DNA from: a virus
Lineage: Duplodnaviria; Heunggongvirae; Uroviricota; Caudoviricetes
Strand: one strand, 5' to 3'
IMG/VR virus record: IMGVR_UViG_3300028456_000002
Span: 1-40,772 of that record
Length of the DNA stretch: 40,772 nt
Both the position numbers and the translations under genes were made by a program. How positions within the stretch are numbered: position 1 is the stretch's first letter; the number at the start of each line of letters is the position of its first letter. The notes beneath the pieces were generated by a model that did no database searches, was not told the DNA's origin, and worked only from the letters and a program-made list of their open reading frames with translations. Shown here piece by piece: positions 1,826 to 36,584 of this stretch.

Positions 1826-5226
<3,401 letters not shown>

Positions 5227-5286
5227 TCGTCATGCTCCATAAACGACAAAACCGCCCGCAGGCGGTTTCACATAAAACATTTTGCA

Positions 5287-7618: not shown

Positions 7619-10600
7619 TACCGATATGCTCCACTTAACCGACCACCATCACGGGACTGCTGTTGCATAAAGTCCGCTGCTGCTTTTTTCCCGAGGTCAT
7701 AAACCACCTTCAGGGCAGCCGGACCTATCTGCCCGTTCGTGCCATCGTTATTGATCTCGATGTTGTACTGCGGGGCAAACATCGCCATACCTGAACCACC
7801 AATATCCGCCACAACCCCCAGCTTACCGTCAGCACCACGACACAGAGGCAGAATGGCTTCAGGCCCAGCTTCCCCCATCACACCTGCACCTTTTGCAAAA
7901 GCAAAAAACGTCGGACGGTTAACCACCGTGCCACTGTAGCGACTCAAATCAGCAGACTGATAAACACCACCATCAGCATTGGGCGTCACACTGGCAGTTG
8001 CTGCACTCCCCCAGCCAAACGCCGAACCAATCCCCTTAACTGCCTGCATCATGGACATCTGAGCCATGATTTTTGCCAGATCAGAAAGGAGCGAGGCGGT
8101 AAAAGATTTGAAGTTCAGTTTTCCGGTAGTACAGAACGTTGCCAGTGCATTACCTGCACTGTTAAATGCCGCTGTAAGCATCTGCTCAGCAGTGCCTGCC
8201 GCATTATCCGCATCTGCCGTGAAATTCTGAAACGCCCGCATAGCACCGTTTTTCCAGTTACCCTGCACAACTTCAAGCTGTTGCCAGTAACGGCGATTCT
8301 CATTCAGTTGTCGGTTCAGGCTCTCCGTCAGCGCCTGCTCGGCCTTTCTGTAGTCATCCGTGTTATATGTCCCTTTCTGCTCACTATCCCGCCTCAACTG
8401 CTCCAGCTGTTGCTGGTATTTCTGGCGAAGACTCAGTTGTACCTGATATCGCTGCCGCTGCTGATCACCCATACCCACCGTGGCGATATCCAGGTCATGT
8501 TGCTGACGCTGAGCGCGCTCTTCTTCAGCCAGTTGACTGGTCAGCTGAATTGTTTTTTTCTTCAGATCGTTGAGTGCCGTCTGTTTCTGAAGCTCCTGCT
8601 GTTTTACATCCAGCAGCGTCAGTGCCTGAATCAGTTCATCTTTACGGGCCAGCACACTCTTTTCATCTGCCGTCAGTTTTTTCCCGTCCAGATCGCTGAT
8701 GCGCTGCTGCAGAGCCAGAAGCTGTTTATGCGCTTCTGTCATCCTGTCAGTGGCAATGCCTGCTGACTGTCTGGCAGCAGCAATCTGCCCTTCCACCTGT
8801 GCCTGTTGCTGACTGTACTGCAGCAATAACCGGGTGGCCTCATCATTACGGGTTTCGCGTGTTTTTTTCTTACCGGATGCCAGGGCTTTCTCGTAACGTT
8901 CATTTTCACGTTGTATCGCCGCATCCCTGACAGCCTGGTCGGCGTACTGCATGGCATTAATACGCGCAATTTCACGCTGATGTCGTGCTGCTTCCGTTTC
9001 ATTCATCCGGTTCAGTGCAGCATTTTCAGCATTACGGCGTTTCTGTTGCTCCTGATAATTCCGCTCTGCCTGCTCTTTTGCATCCTGCAAATCCTTCTGG
9101 CGTTTTTTCTCCTGAAGATCGTTAAGACGCTGCTGATCGTATTCAACCTGAGAAGATGATGCCGTCCAGGGGAGTCTTTTCGCCCGCGACACTTTCTCCT
9201 GTAAAGCGGAAATCTGTTCATCCAGCGAGTCTTCACGACCAATATTCATGGCCGCATCCCAGAAACGACTCCATAAATCAGACAGATACTTCAGCGTACT
9301 ACCAAGCGCATTGAGGTTATTATCAATATCCGCAGTACGCCGACCGGTTTCCTCTGCCAGTGCAGACATGGCTATCCGTGCAGCATCACTGGACCGCCCC
9401 TGCTCCCCAAGGACGCGTATCTGCTCAAGCTGAGTGGCAGTAAGAAAATGCAGCTCATTGTCCAGAGCCTTCGCGGCATTTACAGGATCATCCTTCAGCC
9501 GCTTAAACTGATTTATGGTATCGCTGACCGACTGGCCAACCGATCGCTCCATCTGTGCGGCAGCTCTCGCCACCATACCGATATCGTTTCCACGAAATGC
9601 ACCACTCCCCACCACCTGAGCCAGCGCACCGGCTGCAGCATGTTGCGTGATACCATTCCCGGAAATAGCACGACTGAGCGTCCACAGCTGCCCGGCAGTG
9701 ACTCCGGCATAATGCCCCGTCAGCGACAACTGGCGGTTAAATTCTTCCCCCTCCTTCTGACCGTCATACCAGGCTTTACCCAGACCATAGACGGCCGCGG
9801 CAATACCGCCAATAACCCCGCCAAGCATCATGCCTTTCGGTGACATCAGTGTGTCTATCCATCCGGCACGGTTAGCCAGCGTTATCCCGGATCCCCTCAG
9901 CGCACCTAAATTGCCGCGGGCCAGTTCACCTATCAGAACGCCTATCTCCTGGCGGGCCGCTGCACTTTTCAGACCCAGCGAATGCGTGGCTTTTCCTGCC
10001 TGCTCCATTTTGCGGATATACACTTCTGCAGCACTGCTTACCCCCAGTTGGGCAGCCTTAGCACGAAGCAACTCAGAAGAAGAAAGATTCTGGCGGGTTG
10101 CCTGCTCTTTAAGCTGACGGATAAACGCCACTTTCTGTCGGGTAGCCTCTTCCTCAGCCTGCGTAAGAACACGGGTTTTCGCCGTAACCTCAGAAATCAG
10201 CGCCAGATAATCCTGCTGACCAATCCCGCCACTGTTTCTGGCCTGTCGGATCTGCTGCTGAATACGCTGTAATTCCTGCAGCCCCGCACTGGCCTGTTTC
10301 ACACTGTCAATCTGACGATAAAACGCAGCAGCCGCTTTATCCTGAGCCTCCGCCAGAGCCATTGCCTGCGCCTGTTCCTCGCGCATTTTCTGGCTCAGTG
10401 CCTCCATGCGCTGGCGGGTTTTCTCCACCTCGCGGGCCATGCGTTCATGAGCCTGTGCGCTCTTCTCCACCGTCTGCGCATGGACGGATGCGGCTGTTGC
10501 AGCCGAAGACGCCGCCTGCGTTGTCTGCCGGGCGGCCTGAGTCTGACGCTCCATAAAACGCTGCATACGGGCAGAAGACCGTTCTGCATCGCTGGCTGCA

Positions 10601-22734: not shown

Positions 22735-22809
<75 letters not shown>

Positions 22810-22812
22810 ATA

Positions 22813-22888
<76 letters not shown>

Positions 22889-27763: not shown

Positions 27764-27919
27764 TTACTCCTCAGATTCGTAAGCTGTGAAGACAGCGACC
27801 TCCGTCTGGCCGGTTCGGATTCGTACCTCGCAGAGGTCTTTCCTCGTTACCAGTGCCGTCACTATGACGGTTAAACAGATGACGATCAGGGCGATTAACA
27901 TCGCCTTTTGCTGCTTCAT
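27764..27919 (-). CDS. hok: Hok/Gef family type I toxin (HokD-like), inside an N-terminally extended mok frame 27764..27976
   Basis: MKQQKAMLIALIVICLTVIVTALVTRKDLCEVRIRTGQTEVAVFTAYESEE, 51 aa, single TM helix, near-identical to chromosomal Hok proteins; the 70-aa in-frame upstream extension corresponds to mok. Confidence 0.85.
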   Translation of the reverse strand: MKQQKAMLIALIVICLTVIVTALVTRKDLCEVRIRTGQTEVAVFTAYESEE

Positions 27920-28199
27920 AGCCTGCTTCTCCTTGCCTTTCGGCATGTAAGAGGCTAACCTACATGTGCAAAGCATGAAATTGGCCTCAGATTAATGTTA
28001 AGCGTCTTGCCGGACGCGTAATGTTAACTGGGGCTTTTCTCTATCTGCCGTTGGTGTTCATGCCTGAGACAGATAGCCTCAAGCACCCGCAGCAATTCTA
28101 CTTAACTATCCTTTTCCCGCAAATCGTTTTTATCCCCAGCGGCAAATCGAATACACCACCAGCGCCACTGCCATCGCGATTCCTACTGTTGTGAATGCC

Positions 28200-33559: not shown

Positions 33560-34082
33560 ACGAACCCCTGGCAGACATTTGTTTATCTGCAAAGTAATAT
33601 TGATATTGCTGACGATACGCATGCTTGAAAGCAATAGCTTTTTCTATAAGCTCGTCAGTCTCACGTTCCACAACAGATGGATCCGCAAAAAGCAGCCCAG
33701 ACTCCACCACATCGCCATATTCTTTGTTTAATCCGGCGATCATGTACGTAATGCTTTTTCCATCACTGATCTCACGATACAACCTGAAATCACTAATTCG
33801 GATAGCCTCCATAATTGCCGGAATCAGCGCCGTGAATTTTTTCCGCTTATCCCTGGTGTCGATAGCTTTCCAGCGTTCGAATATCTTCACCCGGTTAACG
33901 CCCAGCGCCCGTTGATCAACCTCGCCATCATTAAACGTGACGCGTTGAACATCGATGTTCGGGCGTTCTTTCAGAGCCCAGAATGCTTCCGTGATTAATA
34001 TCGTCGCCTGCTCCTGTGTCATTCCTGGTCGGCACACCCAGGCATCCAGAGCCTCACAAACCTGTTCAGGGGTGATTTTCAT
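33531..34082 (-). CDS. YdaT-like protein (cII-position gene)
   Basis: 183 aa immediately downstream of the Cro-like gene; resemblance to Rac YdaT is from memory only. Confidence 0.5.
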   Translation of the reverse strand: MKITPEQVCEALDAWVCRPGMTQEQATILITEAFWALKERPNIDVQRVTFNDGEVDQRALGVNRVKIFERWKAIDTRDKRKKFTALIPAIMEAIRISDFRLYREISDGKSITYMIAGLNKEYGDVVESGLLFADPSVVERETDELIEKAIAFKHAYRQQYQYYFADKQMSARGSYEYRCTTMG

Positions 34083-34293
34083 TGTTCAACCGCCCCGCCC
34101 GCTTTGCCTTACGATATTCGTCATAAACTTTGGGGTCGTACTGAAGTTCCCCGCCGGATGCCTCTTGCAGGCGCATCGCGCGACCTTCAGGAACCAATTC
34201 CCCCCATTGAGAAACAGCAGATGGATCAACACCAGCAGCTTTCGCTACTTTGGCTTTCGTCCCATAAAAATTAATTACGTCTGATTTAAACAT
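34066..34293 (-). CDS. dicC: DicC-like Cro-type regulator
   Basis: ORF 34066..34320; ...LVPEGRAMRLQEASGGELQYDPKVYDEYRK.KRAGRLNNENH matches DicC from memory; divergent from dicA. Confidence 0.8.
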   Translation of the reverse strand: MFKSDVINFYGTKAKVAKAAGVDPSAVSQWGELVPEGRAMRLQEASGGELQYDPKVYDEYRKAKRAGRLNNENHP

Positions 34294-34370
34294 CACCCCT
34301 CCAAAGTTGAGTTTTCTCAATAGTAATCACTCAAGGAATCTCAAGTCAAGGGTTATTAAGATATCTAAAT

Positions 34371-34778
34371 ATGAACGAGAAAACTTTAGGTCAACGAATT
34401 AGAGAAAGACGCAAACAGGTTGGTTTAAGTCAAAACGATTTAAGCAAAGCTGCTGGCGTATCTGGCTCATCAATTTCACTATGGGAAAGCGACCATACAG
34501 CCCCGCGCGGGCAAAATTTGCATCGCCTGGCTGAGGTATTGCAATGTTCACCAACTTGGATACTGTTTGGTGACGAGGATAAAACACCAGATCCACCAGT
34601 TGCACTCAACAGCGCCTTAGACTTATCGGAAGATGAGTTGGAGATGTTGCGATTGTATCGCGCACTTCCAAAATCAGAGCAGCAAGCACAAATCAGCGAA
34701 CTCCGTGCCCGCGTTGAGAATTTTAATCGCCTATTCACCGAGCTACTAGAAGCTCGCAAACGTAACAAACATCAATAA
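34371..34778 (+). CDS. dicA: DicA-like repressor (HTH, XRE family)
   Basis: 135 aa; ...NLHRLAEVLQCSPTWILFGDEDK... and ...ELRARVENFNRLFTELLEARKRNK closely match DicA from memory. Confidence 0.9.
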   Translation: MNEKTLGQRIRERRKQVGLSQNDLSKAAGVSGSSISLWESDHTAPRGQNLHRLAEVLQCSPTWILFGDEDKTPDPPVALNSALDLSEDELEMLRLYRALPKSEQQAQISELRARVENFNRLFTELLEARKRNKHQ

Positions 34779-34840: not shown

Positions 34841-34897
34841 TTGAGTTTTCTCATTAAAAACACTTGACCAATTTTAATGAGAAAACTAAATTATCAT
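34841..34897 (+). promoter_or_regulatory. Promoter of the dicB operon with a perfect 16-bp inverted-repeat operator
   Basis: GAGTTTTCTCATTAAAA, 13-bp spacer containing TTGACC, TTTTAATGAGAAAACT; candidate -10 TAAATT 17 nt after TTGACC. Confidence 0.55.
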
Positions 34898-34969
34898 ACA
34901 TCAAGACACCGCACGGTGTTCTCAGCAAACAGTTCCGCTACCCCGGCGTTAAGGGGAAATGAGGTCAGC

Positions 34970-35125
34970 ATGGATACTATCGCTCTTGGCAACAGCGAAT
35001 CTCTGGTATGTGGCGTGTTCCCCAACCAGGACGGCACGTTCACCGCGATGACGTATACCAAAAGCAAAACGTTTAAAACCGAAAATGGTGCCCGTCGCTG
35101 GCTGGAAAGAAACTCAGGTGAGTGA
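34970..35125 (+). CDS. ydfA: YdfA-like small protein
   Basis: MDTIALGNSESLVCGVFPNQDGTFTAMTYTKSKTFKTENGARRWLERNSGE, 51 aa, inside ORF 34877..35125. Confidence 0.7.
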   Translation: MDTIALGNSESLVCGVFPNQDGTFTAMTYTKSKTFKTENGARRWLERNSGE

Positions 35126-35126
35126 T

Positions 35127-35702
35127 ATGGATTTCGACACAATCATGGAAAAGGCTTACGAAGAATACTTCGAAGGCCTTGCCGAAGGCGAAGAAGCTCT
35201 CAGCTTCAGTGAGTTTAAACAGGCACTCAGAATAAGAATGTGCTCTCACAATGACGCAGAGCACAAATATGAGAAGCAAAATCAGACCGCAGAAAATTTT
35301 GTTCTGGAACCCGGAGAAACGCTTTTCAAAATTCCCGTTACGTGCCCCATTTGCGGTTTTACATCAGAAGAACTTGACGACTCCTGTAACAATCAGGAAA
35401 CAACCAAGTATGTCGAAGATGATACCGAGTGCGCACGAAGAACGATTATATCCACGAGTCCAAACTCCAGGACCAATAAATCTCACTTTGAGAGGGTGAT
35501 TAATCCACTCCCCCAAACCAATAAAAAAGATGCCGGAGGACAAAAAACCCAATGGAACAACGGGATATCTGTCAAAAAAAGACGTTCCATTAAAGACAAA
35601 CAACGCAGCGCCAACAACTGTAAGCGCTTTATACCAGTAATCAATTTTCATGTTCTTAAGCGGATTTATTGGTGGTTGCGACATTGCTTAATGAATCCTT
35701 AA
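35127..35702 (+). CDS. Hypothetical protein with zinc-ribbon motif (YdfB/YdfC-position ORF)
   Basis: Start taken at MDFDTIMEKAYEEYFEGLAEGEE...; contains CPICGF; track ORF 35085..35702. Confidence 0.5.
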   Translation: MDFDTIMEKAYEEYFEGLAEGEEALSFSEFKQALRIRMCSHNDAEHKYEKQNQTAENFVLEPGETLFKIPVTCPICGFTSEELDDSCNNQETTKYVEDDTECARRTIISTSPNSRTNKSHFERVINPLPQTNKKDAGGQKTQWNNGISVKKRRSIKDKQRSANNCKRFIPVINFHVLKRIYWWLRHCLMNP

Positions 35703-35941
35703 AACTGTGGTGATTTTAAGGATACCACCTCGCCTGACGTGGTTAAAAGCAGGCACACAACACGAAAGCGCACGGCGAAGTTCGTCTCACTGTACTGTGT
35801 CGTTAAATTTAATTCGACCGTGCGCTTCCGGTTGTGGCAACCCGCGAAATGGCGCGGCGGTAAGTATGGCGGGGTTATTCCTTCCCCGTTGAGGACACCG
35901 AGTTGTCAGGTTGACCATACGCTTAAGTGACAACCCCGCTG

Positions 35942-36002
35942 CAACAACCCATGTTGATTACCTTTTGGCGGGTATCCGTTTTTTGTTTTCCCTTGTGATC
36001 CC
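35942..36002 (+). ncRNA. dicF: DicF-like small RNA (divergent) ending in an intrinsic terminator
   Basis: TTTGGCGGGTATCC...GATCCCCGCCCTTTTT resembles K-12 DicF (UUUGGCGGUAUCAG...CUGCCGCCCUUUUU, from memory) in position and 3' hairpin; lies just upstream of dicB. Boundaries approximate. Confidence 0.45.
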
Positions 36003-36195
36003 CGCCCTTTTTAAAGTGAATTTTGTGATGCGGTGAATGCGGCTCAGCGCACGCGGAACAGTTAAAAAGGCCAGTTGACTTCCGTATTGGTTCTTATGGG
36101 TGGGTTCTCTGTATCCGGCGTTAATTGTTAACTGGTTAACGTCACCTGGAGGCACCAGGCACCGTATCACAAAATTCATTGTTGAGGACGCGATA

Positions 36196-36384
36196 ATGGA
36201 AACGTTATTACCAAACGTTAATACGTCTGAAGGTTGTTTTGAAATTGGTGTCAAAATCAGTAACCCTGCATTTACTGAAGATGCCATTAATAAGAGAAAA
36301 CACGAACGGGAGCTATTAAATCAAATATGCATTGTTTCAATGCTGGCCCGTTTACGTCTGATGCAAAAAGGATGCTGGCAATGA
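36196..36384 (+). CDS. dicB: Cell division inhibitor DicB
   Basis: METLLPNVNTSEGCFEIGVKISNPAFTEDAINKRKHERELLNQICIVSMLARLRLMQKGCWQ, 62 aa, near-identical to K-12 DicB from memory. Confidence 0.9.
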   Translation: METLLPNVNTSEGCFEIGVKISNPAFTEDAINKRKHERELLNQICIVSMLARLRLMQKGCWQ

Positions 36385-36584
36385 ATACAGCATTTGCACT
36401 CGTTCTGACAGTTTTTCTTAATACTGGCGAGCCTGTTGATCTGGTTATTGACATTTACGGTTCAATGAAAGAATGCACGGCTGCCGCAGCGGAACAGAAA
36501 ATTCCCGGCAACTGTTATCCGGTTGATAAAGTTATTCACATGGACAATAACGAAATCCCGGCGGGACTTAAAACAGCACCGTAA
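36381..36584 (+). CDS. ydfD: YdfD-like small protein (reported host-lysis function)
   Basis: MNTAFALVLTVFLNTGEPVDLVIDIYGSMKECTAAAAEQKIPGNCYPVDKVIHMDNNEIPAGLKTAP; start overlaps dicB stop (ATGA). Confidence 0.75.
   Translation: MNTAFALVLTVFLNTGEPVDLVIDIYGSMKECTAAAAEQKIPGNCYPVDKVIHMDNNEIPAGLKTAP

Follow-up and report, generated by a model that had tools for sequence, protein, structure and literature searches.

DicF is among the oldest known bacterial small RNAs, and only its 53-nt end product has been catalogued. Its 3' region pairs with the ribosome-binding site of ftsZ and its 5' end with xylR and pykA (PMC5069750). In E. coli K-12 a 190-nt "long DicF" accumulates, the 5' end of which requires RNase III; this species is the direct precursor that RNase E converts to the 53-nt DicF (Ragunathan et al. 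2023, PMC10448788). Processing by RNase E has been published for K-12 only, where the parent transcript is polycistronic, DicF binds Hfq and no internal promoter was found. The main long species in K-12 is a 1,146-nt transcript that stops at the terminator in the DicF position; RNase E had to be inactivated before a read-through transcript could be seen (PMC10448788). The put RNAs of the lambdoid phages HK022 and HK639 act as antiterminators in cis, binding RNA polymerase at the beta' zinc-binding domain and suppressing terminators that lie 3' of them. They are about 70 nt long and consist of two stem-loops (PMC9378689).

The window, by which we mean the whole 40,772-nt stretch of DNA analysed here (IMG/VR record IMGVR_UViG_3300028456_000002), carries the immunity and early-left region of a lambdoid prophage. 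The genes and promoter surrounding the segment under study are:

34066-34320, minus strand: P22_Cro-type gene (Pfam)
34371-34778: HTH repressor gene (HTH_3, Pfam)
34864-34892, plus strand: PL-like promoter, TTGACC-17-TAAATT, just 3' of the HTH repressor gene (promoter scan, consensus match)
34877-35125: YdfA/DUF1391 gene (Pfam)
35085-35702: phage ORF of 205 aa, function unassigned
36196-36384, plus strand: dicB, 62 aa, first gene 3' of the structured region (Pfam DicB PF05358, E = 1.9e-38)

The promoter match is presumed to be the start of an early-left operon of the dicB type. A DUF1482/YdfD-like gene lies 3' of dicB and is followed by a gene for an 823-aa exonuclease. The functional phage mEp460 has the same gene order, running on to xis and int.

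The 493 nt between the 205-aa phage ORF and dicB contain no credible ORF. The first-pass annotation of this DNA had said as much of the 240 bp in front of the putative small RNA, and its statement holds: the only ORFs there begin with GTG or TTG, encode 41-63 aa, and carry 1-nt indels in close homologs. A coding function for the region was rejected on the grounds of the indels and of the covariation described below. Positions 35703-36195 are untranslated RNA linking the phage ORF to dicB; they belong to an early-left operon, under repressor control, of a lambdoid prophage, and they are modular. The modules, with the helices of element E, are:

35732-35754, plus strand: hairpin H0 (GCCUG ... 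CAGGC), directly 5' of the ACACAAC segment
35755-35761, plus strand: segment X1 (ACACAAC), which can pair with GUUGUG of the P1 5' strand
35763-35830, plus strand: helix P0, predicted RNase III site, with arms at 35763-35775 and 35818-35830 and a 42-nt loop
35831-35945, plus strand: element E, a four-way junction RNA of 115 nt with a pseudoknot (covariation, fold)
35831-35838 with 35938-35945, plus strand: helix P1 of E
35842-35846 with 35853-35857, plus strand: helix P2 of E
35858-35861 with 35897-35900, plus strand: helix P4a of E
35864-35869 with 35915-35920, plus strand: helix P3 of E (pseudoknot)
35870-35874 with 35884-35888, plus strand: helix P4 of E
35901-35908 with 35928-35935, plus strand: helix P5 of E
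35946-35966, plus strand: A/U-rich linker, AACCCAUGUUGAUUACCUUUU (K-12 alignment)
35967-36012, plus strand: terminator T, the hairpin at the DicF position, GGCGGGUAUC...GAUCCCCGCC followed by C and UUUUU (RNA fold)
36013-36195, plus strand: dicB leader domain closed by a long duplex with arms at 36017-36035 and 36160-36178 (fold)

The predicted fold of 35703-36015 was more stable than those of 100 out of 100 shuffled sequences (z = -3.66). The first-pass annotation had described a structured region of the kind expected for a processed precursor. That description was right about structure but missed the discrete, pseudoknotted 115-nt domain that we call E, which is also found without a DicF-like small RNA.

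Copies of E were gathered by pattern scans of viral, genome and metagenome collections, and a covariance model (R1) was built. The alignment used for covariation holds 97 distinct copies, one per locus. Paired positions are filled by pairs in 95.7% of its cells, compared with 31-54% in slid controls. Changes on both sides of a pair occur in 19 of the 36 pairs (mean of 9.2 in shuffled alignments, with none of 500 shuffles as high), and the covariation score is 0.192 as against 0.096 for shuffles. By this comparative evidence all six helices of E are backed by covariation, P3 by one pair. P3 is a 6-bp pseudoknot that joins the internal loop between P4a and P4 to the 19-nt loop of P5; its covarying pair is U-A in 78 copies, C-G in 14 and U-G in 5, and its remaining pairs are invariant. 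The minimum free energy structure calculated by RNAfold for E alone has the same nested helices P1, P2, P4a, P4 and P5. Because G.U pairs are abundant in E, the strand is fixed as the plus strand. Some 30 of the unpaired bases never vary, GGYAAG and CAGGUUGA among them. A tRNA-like reading of E was considered and rejected, as the junction linkers and arm sizes do not fit and the tRNA and tmRNA models gave no match.

Identity with the K-12 locus differs greatly among the modules. E is 99.1% identical to its K-12 counterpart, compared with 93% for the dicB coding sequence, 87% for the dicB leader, 78% for P0 and its loop, and 60% for the linker and hairpin; the upstream region is unrelated. On these sequence comparisons E is the most conserved segment of the locus, far above DicF itself. 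Neither the window nor 13 other E-bearing loci gave an Rfam 15 match overlapping E, even at permissive E-values, and no description of E was found in the literature searched (dicF with antitermination, dicF-like, motif, RNA polymerase aptamers, and the P1 ban operon); papers matching the motif as a text string contained unrelated primers. Judged by its alignment and distribution, E is a widespread, covariation-backed RNA domain outside the Rfam catalogue.

We identified E in 4273 of 5426 complete E. coli genomes (79%), at 8,742 places and with up to eight per genome; none of the matches listed was annotated. Prophages of E. albertii, E. ruysiae, Shigella, Citrobacter, Trabulsiella, Erwinia tracheiphila and Izhakiella carry it too. 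So do 63 phage records, those of mEp460, cdtI and Stx2c phages among them, and about 510 plasmid records, which among the matches listed are mostly P1-like plasmids of 85-115 kb. A pattern scan of genome contigs gave 117 matches, most of them chance matches in GC-rich genomes, and 15 of these loci fit model R1. The metagenome scan gave three matches, all of types already found. The window and each of the 97 loci have exactly one copy of E. A second copy on the PR side is absent, R1 having a single match in the 40.8-kb window with filters off.

In all of the loci examined in detail, E is sense-oriented and lies in untranslated RNA of an early, repressor-controlled operon. Four contexts can be distinguished. 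The Qin/mEp460 type, to which the window belongs, has small ORFs, then E and T, and finally dicB with its leader; two or three ORFs (two in the window) separate E from the promoter both here and in Qin. The L016, L206, cdtI and Erwinia types have a PL-like promoter with operators and then an ORF-free leader of about 650 nt containing H0, P0 (which at times has large inserts), E and T, and ending in a second domain closed by a duplex; the first gene and, further on, xis come after it. In P1, E begins about 20-45 nt past the C1-controlled Pban promoter and is followed by a canonical terminator (GCCCAUC-UUCG-GGUGGGC and six to eight U), by tRNA genes and, about 2.6 kb past E and this terminator, by ban; according to the P1 annotation, it is the Pban operator that "controls expression of ban". 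Finally, in L248, L253, L298 and L327, E is embedded in roughly 1 kb of GC-rich sequence that has no ORF. These copies have no terminator within 140 nt, and E runs straight into the domain found after T in the second context. T usually lies 9-60 nt after E in most lineages, but since four lineages have E without an adjacent T, T looks like an optional, fast-evolving insert. Lambdoid and P1-like carriers have no neighbouring gene in common.

On the 5' side of E, the complementary segments pointed out in the first-pass annotation, GCGCACGG (35768-35775) and CCGTGCGC (35818-35825), are present and extend to the 13-nt arms of P0, which are 92% complementary. We estimate that about 0.7 inverted repeats of 8 nt are expected by chance in 300 nt. 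The repeat is therefore near chance when taken alone, and gains meaning only through covariation and the published mapping of RNase III processing in K-12. At least six versions of P0 that differ in sequence and are still paired occur in other lineages; they include GAUGAGAGCAUUG/CAGUGCUCUCUUC, ...CACUC/GAGUG... and ...CAUUC/GAAUG..., unrelated sequences that all lie between CA(C/U)AAC and E. Counting 190 nt back from the 3' end of K-12 DicF leads to the final nucleotides of the 3' arm of P0, at 1-6 nt from the start of E. By homology with K-12, we infer that P0 is the RNase III site of a K-12-type "long DicF", perhaps lengthened to about 20 bp if ACACAAC pairs with GUUGUG. The designation "structured precursor region" was thus essentially correct, as the homologous helix in K-12 sits at the RNase III-made 5' end of the 190-nt precursor (PMC10448788).

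The heptamer X1 belongs to a motif, CA(C/U)AAC, that is always directly 5' of P0. Its pairing with the P1 5' strand would form an alternative helix, P1', which is the helix that would lengthen P0 and which is present in the minimum free energy fold. No covariation was found for the X1/P1' pairing: in the L253-type copies the P1 3' strand followed a changed 5' strand, and X1 did not. At the position of H0 we read by eye CUGAC/GUCAG in K-12, CCUGG/CCAGG in L016 and GCUGG/CCAGC in L037. A boxA (NusB/E) reading of UGCUCU(C)UU just 5' of E was rejected, this sequence being the P0 3' strand and paired in every lineage.

The hairpin and run of five T reported in the first-pass annotation are indeed present, with a stem at 35967-36006, the U-run at 36008-36012 and a free energy of -13.8 kcal/mol. 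Their placement within the 60 nt before dicB was mistaken: the U-run ends 183 nt before dicB (36196), a separate structured leader fills the gap, and position 36002, given as the end of the region, falls inside the 3' arm of the terminator. The resemblance to K-12 DicF is partial, as had been noted. The GGCGG/CCGCC stem base, the U-run and the flanks align, whereas the 5' tail and the loop do not. As in the aligned Qin locus, T lies between the ydfC-side untranslated region and dicB, and it folds as a Rho-independent terminator end. A covariance-model search, which the earlier annotation had suggested as a check on DicF homology, gave no match to the Rfam DicF model (RF00039), either in 35500-36400 at a limit as loose as E<=10 or across the whole window at the gathering score (threshold 48 bits). 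The K-12 DicF control scored 76.7 bits, and the L037 variant 30.3 bits. The phrase "divergent DicF-like sRNA" therefore stands for the locus, the flanks and the terminator architecture, and fails for the Rfam DicF model and for the CUCCG segment that pairs with ftsZ. From the alignment with K-12 Qin, T is DicF by position and not by family criteria.

The anti-Shine-Dalgarno segment CUCCG, through which K-12 DicF pairs with ftsZ, is missing from the window hairpin. RNAduplex gave -26.6 kcal/mol for the window RNA with the ftsZ translation initiation region, a value equalled or bettered by 277 of 300 shuffles, as against -38.5 kcal/mol for K-12 DicF, equalled or bettered by 34 of 300. The 5'-end seed of K-12 DicF that acts on xylR and pykA, UUUCUGGUGACG, has as its counterpart in the window CAUGUUGAUUACC, and the two cannot be aligned. 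The suggestion that a divergent seed could change the targets agrees with these predictions as far as loss of ftsZ pairing goes, the window RNA pairing no better than shuffles. ftsZ is probably not a target of the window hairpin, and it is plausible from the modelled pairing that the target set differs from that of DicF, the role as a small RNA being itself putative. Since the window variant probably does not target ftsZ, "DicF-like" prophage copies should not be assumed to block cell division.

This hairpin variant occurs in 188 of the 5426 complete E. coli genomes, for example in O121 and O55:H7 strains, with a best identity of 98.8% and with no annotation among the matches listed. Relative to L121, the stem in the window has a single U.C mismatch. 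The collected loci have 51 distinct sequences 3' of E, and the hairpins at the DicF position fall into at least 10 clearly different variants, of which K-12 DicF is one and the window hairpin another. The A/U-rich linker at 35946-35966 aligns with the K-12 linker that RNase E cuts to form the 5' end of DicF, and would by analogy be cut here as well.

The leader between T and dicB is closed by a duplex with 19-nt arms that are 95% complementary, and its minimum free energy is -68.8 kcal/mol (z = -3.88). It scored 34.1 bits with the Rfam STnc100 model, under the cut-off of 47. An RNase III-made 3' end, giving a 72-nt DicF, has been reported in K-12 (PMC5069750), and by analogy the dicB leader duplex is probably a second RNase III site.

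Our preferred reading of E, to which we assign a probability of roughly 0.35, is that it would act in cis on RNA polymerase to allow read-through, as a functional analogue of the HK022 put RNA. It is a rather doubtful extension of this reading that E represents a second class of cis antiterminator RNA after put, structurally unrelated to it, acting alone or with host Nus-type factors, and used by N-less lambdoid prophages and P1-like phage-plasmids. In such a scheme RNase III would cut P0, transcripts ending at T would yield an RNA of about 185 nt comprising E and T, and RNase E may release a T RNA of about 50-60 nt with a seed unlike that of DicF, each step being modelled on K-12 by homology. 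E would fold on the nascent transcript and act in cis on the elongating host polymerase, which is the least certain step. A fraction of polymerases would then pass T and later terminators or Rho sites, so that dicB, the exonuclease gene, xis and int are transcribed. In this way E would be an analogue in function, and not a homologue, of the put RNA or of nutL with N. Because lambdoid and P1-like carriers share no neighbouring gene and yet keep the invariant unpaired bases, the partner of E is probably a host component, or else E acts alone. A search by annotation and Pfam found no N-like gene in the E-bearing early-left operons of the window, mEp460, cdtI and an Stx2c phage.

Several observations have been counted for read-through in cis. 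Transcription of dicB, the exonuclease gene, xis/int or ban requires polymerase to pass T and long untranslated stretches; and as no internal promoter was found in K-12, dicB depends on read-through of T (PMC10448788). E has an early, untranslated position, there is a precedent in HK639 for presence in the PL operon only, E is kept where T is not adjacent, and the putL site of HK022 is closely trailed by a terminator-like hairpin. Counted against it are the lack of relationship between E and put in sequence or fold, the position of E after ORFs in the window and in Qin, and the stable 190-nt RNA of E and T, which fits a trans-acting RNA equally well. The dominance of the 1,146-nt transcript ending at T in K-12 means that read-through at T is inefficient at steady state.

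A trans-acting role is the strongest of the alternatives, unlikely in itself and graded as nearly as likely as read-through in cis. E would be the core of a stable non-coding RNA that binds or titrates a conserved host protein or complex; the nearby terminator would set its 3' end, RNase III its 5' end in the Qin-type phages, and T would only secondarily be a variable small RNA. The accumulation of the 190-nt RNA in K-12, most noticeably in stationary phase and with RNase E inactive (PMC10448788), agrees with this, as does the P1 arrangement of promoter, E and strong terminator, which resembles a small RNA gene about 180 nt in length. The L248 locus likewise resembles a large non-coding RNA gene, with a promoter-like site followed by about 1 kb of structured RNA that has no ORF and by a strong terminator, and the invariant loops without a common phage neighbour suggest a host partner. 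A free-standing RNA gene sits less well with the finding that E is always co-oriented with, and 5' of, genes that seem to be on the same promoter, no isolated copy in another orientation having been found.

E could also be only a scaffold for processing and stability, protecting the precursor and placing the cuts of RNase III and RNase E, but we consider this improbable. Its neighbours are suitable, as the RNase III site P0 adjoins E and the RNase E site is in the linker just 3', and the 53-nt DicF derives directly from the 190-nt species (PMC10448788). However, a scaffold does not need some 30 invariant unpaired bases and 99% identity while the small RNA that it serves varies freely. Moreover, the P1 copy of E is followed by a plain tetraloop terminator, and four lineages have E but no terminator hairpin.

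Slightly less probable again is a sensor, either riboswitch-like or bound by a host protein, that sets termination at T and so ties dicB, the exonuclease gene, xis and int to host physiology. The build of E is aptamer-like: G.U pairs weaken its closing helix P1, and it has a four-way junction, a pseudoknot and an invariant core. A terminator follows within 9-60 nt in most lineages, and the P1 5' strand has an alternative partner in X1. Against a sensor, X1 did not covary with the changed P1 5' strand, and inspection revealed no conserved pairing of the antiterminator kind that would join the 3' part of E to the 5' half of T. T varies freely in sequence, as the linker does in length, and in four lineages no T is adjacent. 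Within E plus T, the predicted probability of forming T ranged from 0 to 1 among near-identical K-12-type copies in a calculation that ignores the pseudoknot; we discarded this quantity as erratic, and it is uninformative about a sensor.

Mosaic lambdoid genomes keep conserved junction sequences, and ORFs of 61 and 63 aa overlap the region, both of which could be counted for a conservation that does not reflect RNA function. That E is conserved as a short ORF, a DNA-level site or a hitch-hiking recombination "linker" is nevertheless very improbable, given that 19 pairs changed on both sides with pairing kept, that G.U pairs are strand-specific, that 1-nt indels in the P4 loop disrupt every reading frame, and that in K-12 the region is transcribed and accumulates as RNA (PMC10448788).

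On this comparison, the small RNA part of the locus evolves freely, and the part under selection is the nearly invariant pseudoknotted domain upstream of it, with about 8,700 copies in E. coli and others in prophages of further Enterobacterales and in about 500 P1-like plasmids. If E controls early read-through, it would explain how dicB and the genes for recombination and excision are expressed in lambdoid phages without N, and E would be a second natural RNA that reprograms RNA polymerase; a cis antiterminator would then be present in most E. coli genomes. If E instead acts in trans, it would be an abundant, unknown phage RNA in the best-studied bacterium.

The put RNAs are a close parallel for the preferred reading, read-through in cis. 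In the L016, L206 and cdtI types, E has the position of a cis RNA in the untranslated early transcript 3' of PL, and the carriers named above lack N as judged by annotation and Pfam. Presence in the PL operon only is possible for put as well, HK639 having an annotated putL-like antiterminator RNA in that operon only. A terminator-like hairpin lies close behind, as it does at HK022 putL, and a host factor is the likely partner, with antitermination by E being a prediction. E differs from put in its 115-nt length and its four-way junction with five helices and a pseudoknot. Model R1 found nothing above noise in HK022 and HK639. The string GCGCGGCGG, common to E and HK022 putL, was rejected as a sign of homology on the grounds of that absence and of the different folds.

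In phage lambda, the N leader contains an RNase III-type duplex between nutL and the first downstream start codon. The E-bearing loci resemble nutL in position within the PL transcript and in having such a duplex before the first downstream start codon, but boxA and boxB are absent, as is the N gene by annotation and Pfam, the boxA-like UGCUCU being one strand of P0. The resemblance to transcriptional riboswitches of the SAM-I type lies in the closing helix, the multi-helix junction, the loop-to-junction pseudoknot, the invariant core and the downstream intrinsic terminator, and more generally in a conserved structured domain with covariation. In contrast, the Rfam riboswitch models gave no match, inspection revealed no conserved alternative of terminator and antiterminator, and the terminator is absent in some lineages.

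With DicF and its 190-nt precursor in Qin (RF00039), the window shares the locus and its order, namely a structured upstream region, a hairpin with U5, a duplex-closed leader and dicB. It also shares identical flanks, the GGCGG/CCGCC stem base, the P0 helix and E at 99%. The 5' tail and loop of the window hairpin are unrelated to those of Qin DicF, and the ftsZ anti-Shine-Dalgarno segment is absent. The P1 sequences AF234172 and AF234173 carry a misc_feature named "dicF-like region", annotated by similarity only, without structure or function, and their terminator is unlike DicF. This feature overlaps the 3' half of the P1 copy of E and the terminator, so the similarity was already noticed when P1 was annotated. 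The P1 copy scores 100.6 bits with model R1, and E is what P1 and the DicF locus have in common.

The 3' arm of P0, the helix immediately 5' of the conserved four-way-junction RNA E (window 35831-35945, plus strand), contains the string CGTGCGCT (35819-35826), whose perfect complement, AGCGCACG, occurs in the dicB leader at 36046-36053. The identical string is carried by K-12. In read-through transcripts the two segments could pair over this long range as an alternative structure, or the complementarity could have arisen by chance, since about two such 8-mers are expected per 500 nt. A second segment, UAAGUAUGGCGGGG (35861-35874), covers pseudoknot and P4 strands of E and shows 79% complementarity to the 3' half and U-run (36000-36013) of T, the DicF-position terminator hairpin. 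We have not adopted the reading of UAAGUAUGGCGGGG as an antiterminator, because the copy of E in phage P1 does not share this complementarity.

A long duplex (19-26 bp) closes the dicB leader itself (36013-36195), and several hairpins lie inside. The leader matches the Rfam family STnc100 at 34 bits, under the cut-off of 47, and similar sub-threshold matches occur in K-12 (34.4 bits) and upstream of tciA in phage P1 (33.4 bits). The STnc100 model may not be broad enough to cover these phage leaders.

Among the other E-bearing loci, the P0 loop of L228 (4430-4525, Erwinia tracheiphila) and of L236, L053 and L355 holds an insert of 90-130 nt with two hairpins, the loops of which are GTTCAATTC or GTTCGATTC and resemble tRNA T-loops. 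One of the hairpins is followed by CACCGC, resembling an acceptor 3' strand. The insert could be derived from a tRNA, or it could form a double T-loop motif. In L228 (4665-4740) and at the equivalent positions of L236, L217 and L053, the DicF-position terminator hairpin includes AGGAG and, after it, ATG or GTG; in these Erwinia, Izhakiella and Trabulsiella types, the start site of a short ORF may thus be sequestered within the terminator stem.

Three E copies from Shigella flexneri (L013, L061 and L192) are without helix P0 and the 5' strand of helix P1 of E, and ...CACACAACGCGAAA runs directly into the P2 loop. The missing part was apparently deleted between a pair of ACGCGAAA-like repeats, and the three copies are probably decayed. 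In other loci, E lies with several further domains in GC-rich regions of about 1 kb without ORFs (L248 4541-5568; L253, L298, L327, L356 and L357), for which Rfam gave no match. Each of the further domains has a closing helix of the GUUGUGG/CCACAAC-like or AAGAGCA/UGCUCUU-like type, and the L248 region has a promoter-like site in front and a strong terminator at its end. Such a region may correspond to a large phage RNA made up of multiple domains.

Other RNA genes in the window are:
27914-28088, minus strand, full-length sok antitoxin RNA (Rfam RF01794, 112 bits)
22738-22809 and 22816-22888, minus strand, two adjacent tRNA genes (Rfam tRNA, 65.6 and 63.6 bits)

The full-length sok RNA places a hok/sok-type toxin-antitoxin locus within the prophage. 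On the viral contig of L016, which also carries an E-type leader, isrK (64 bits) adjoins a C4 antisense RNA (82 bits) at 5052-5240, a pair that constitutes an immI/ant-type region like those of phages P1 and P7 and of Gifsy-type phages.
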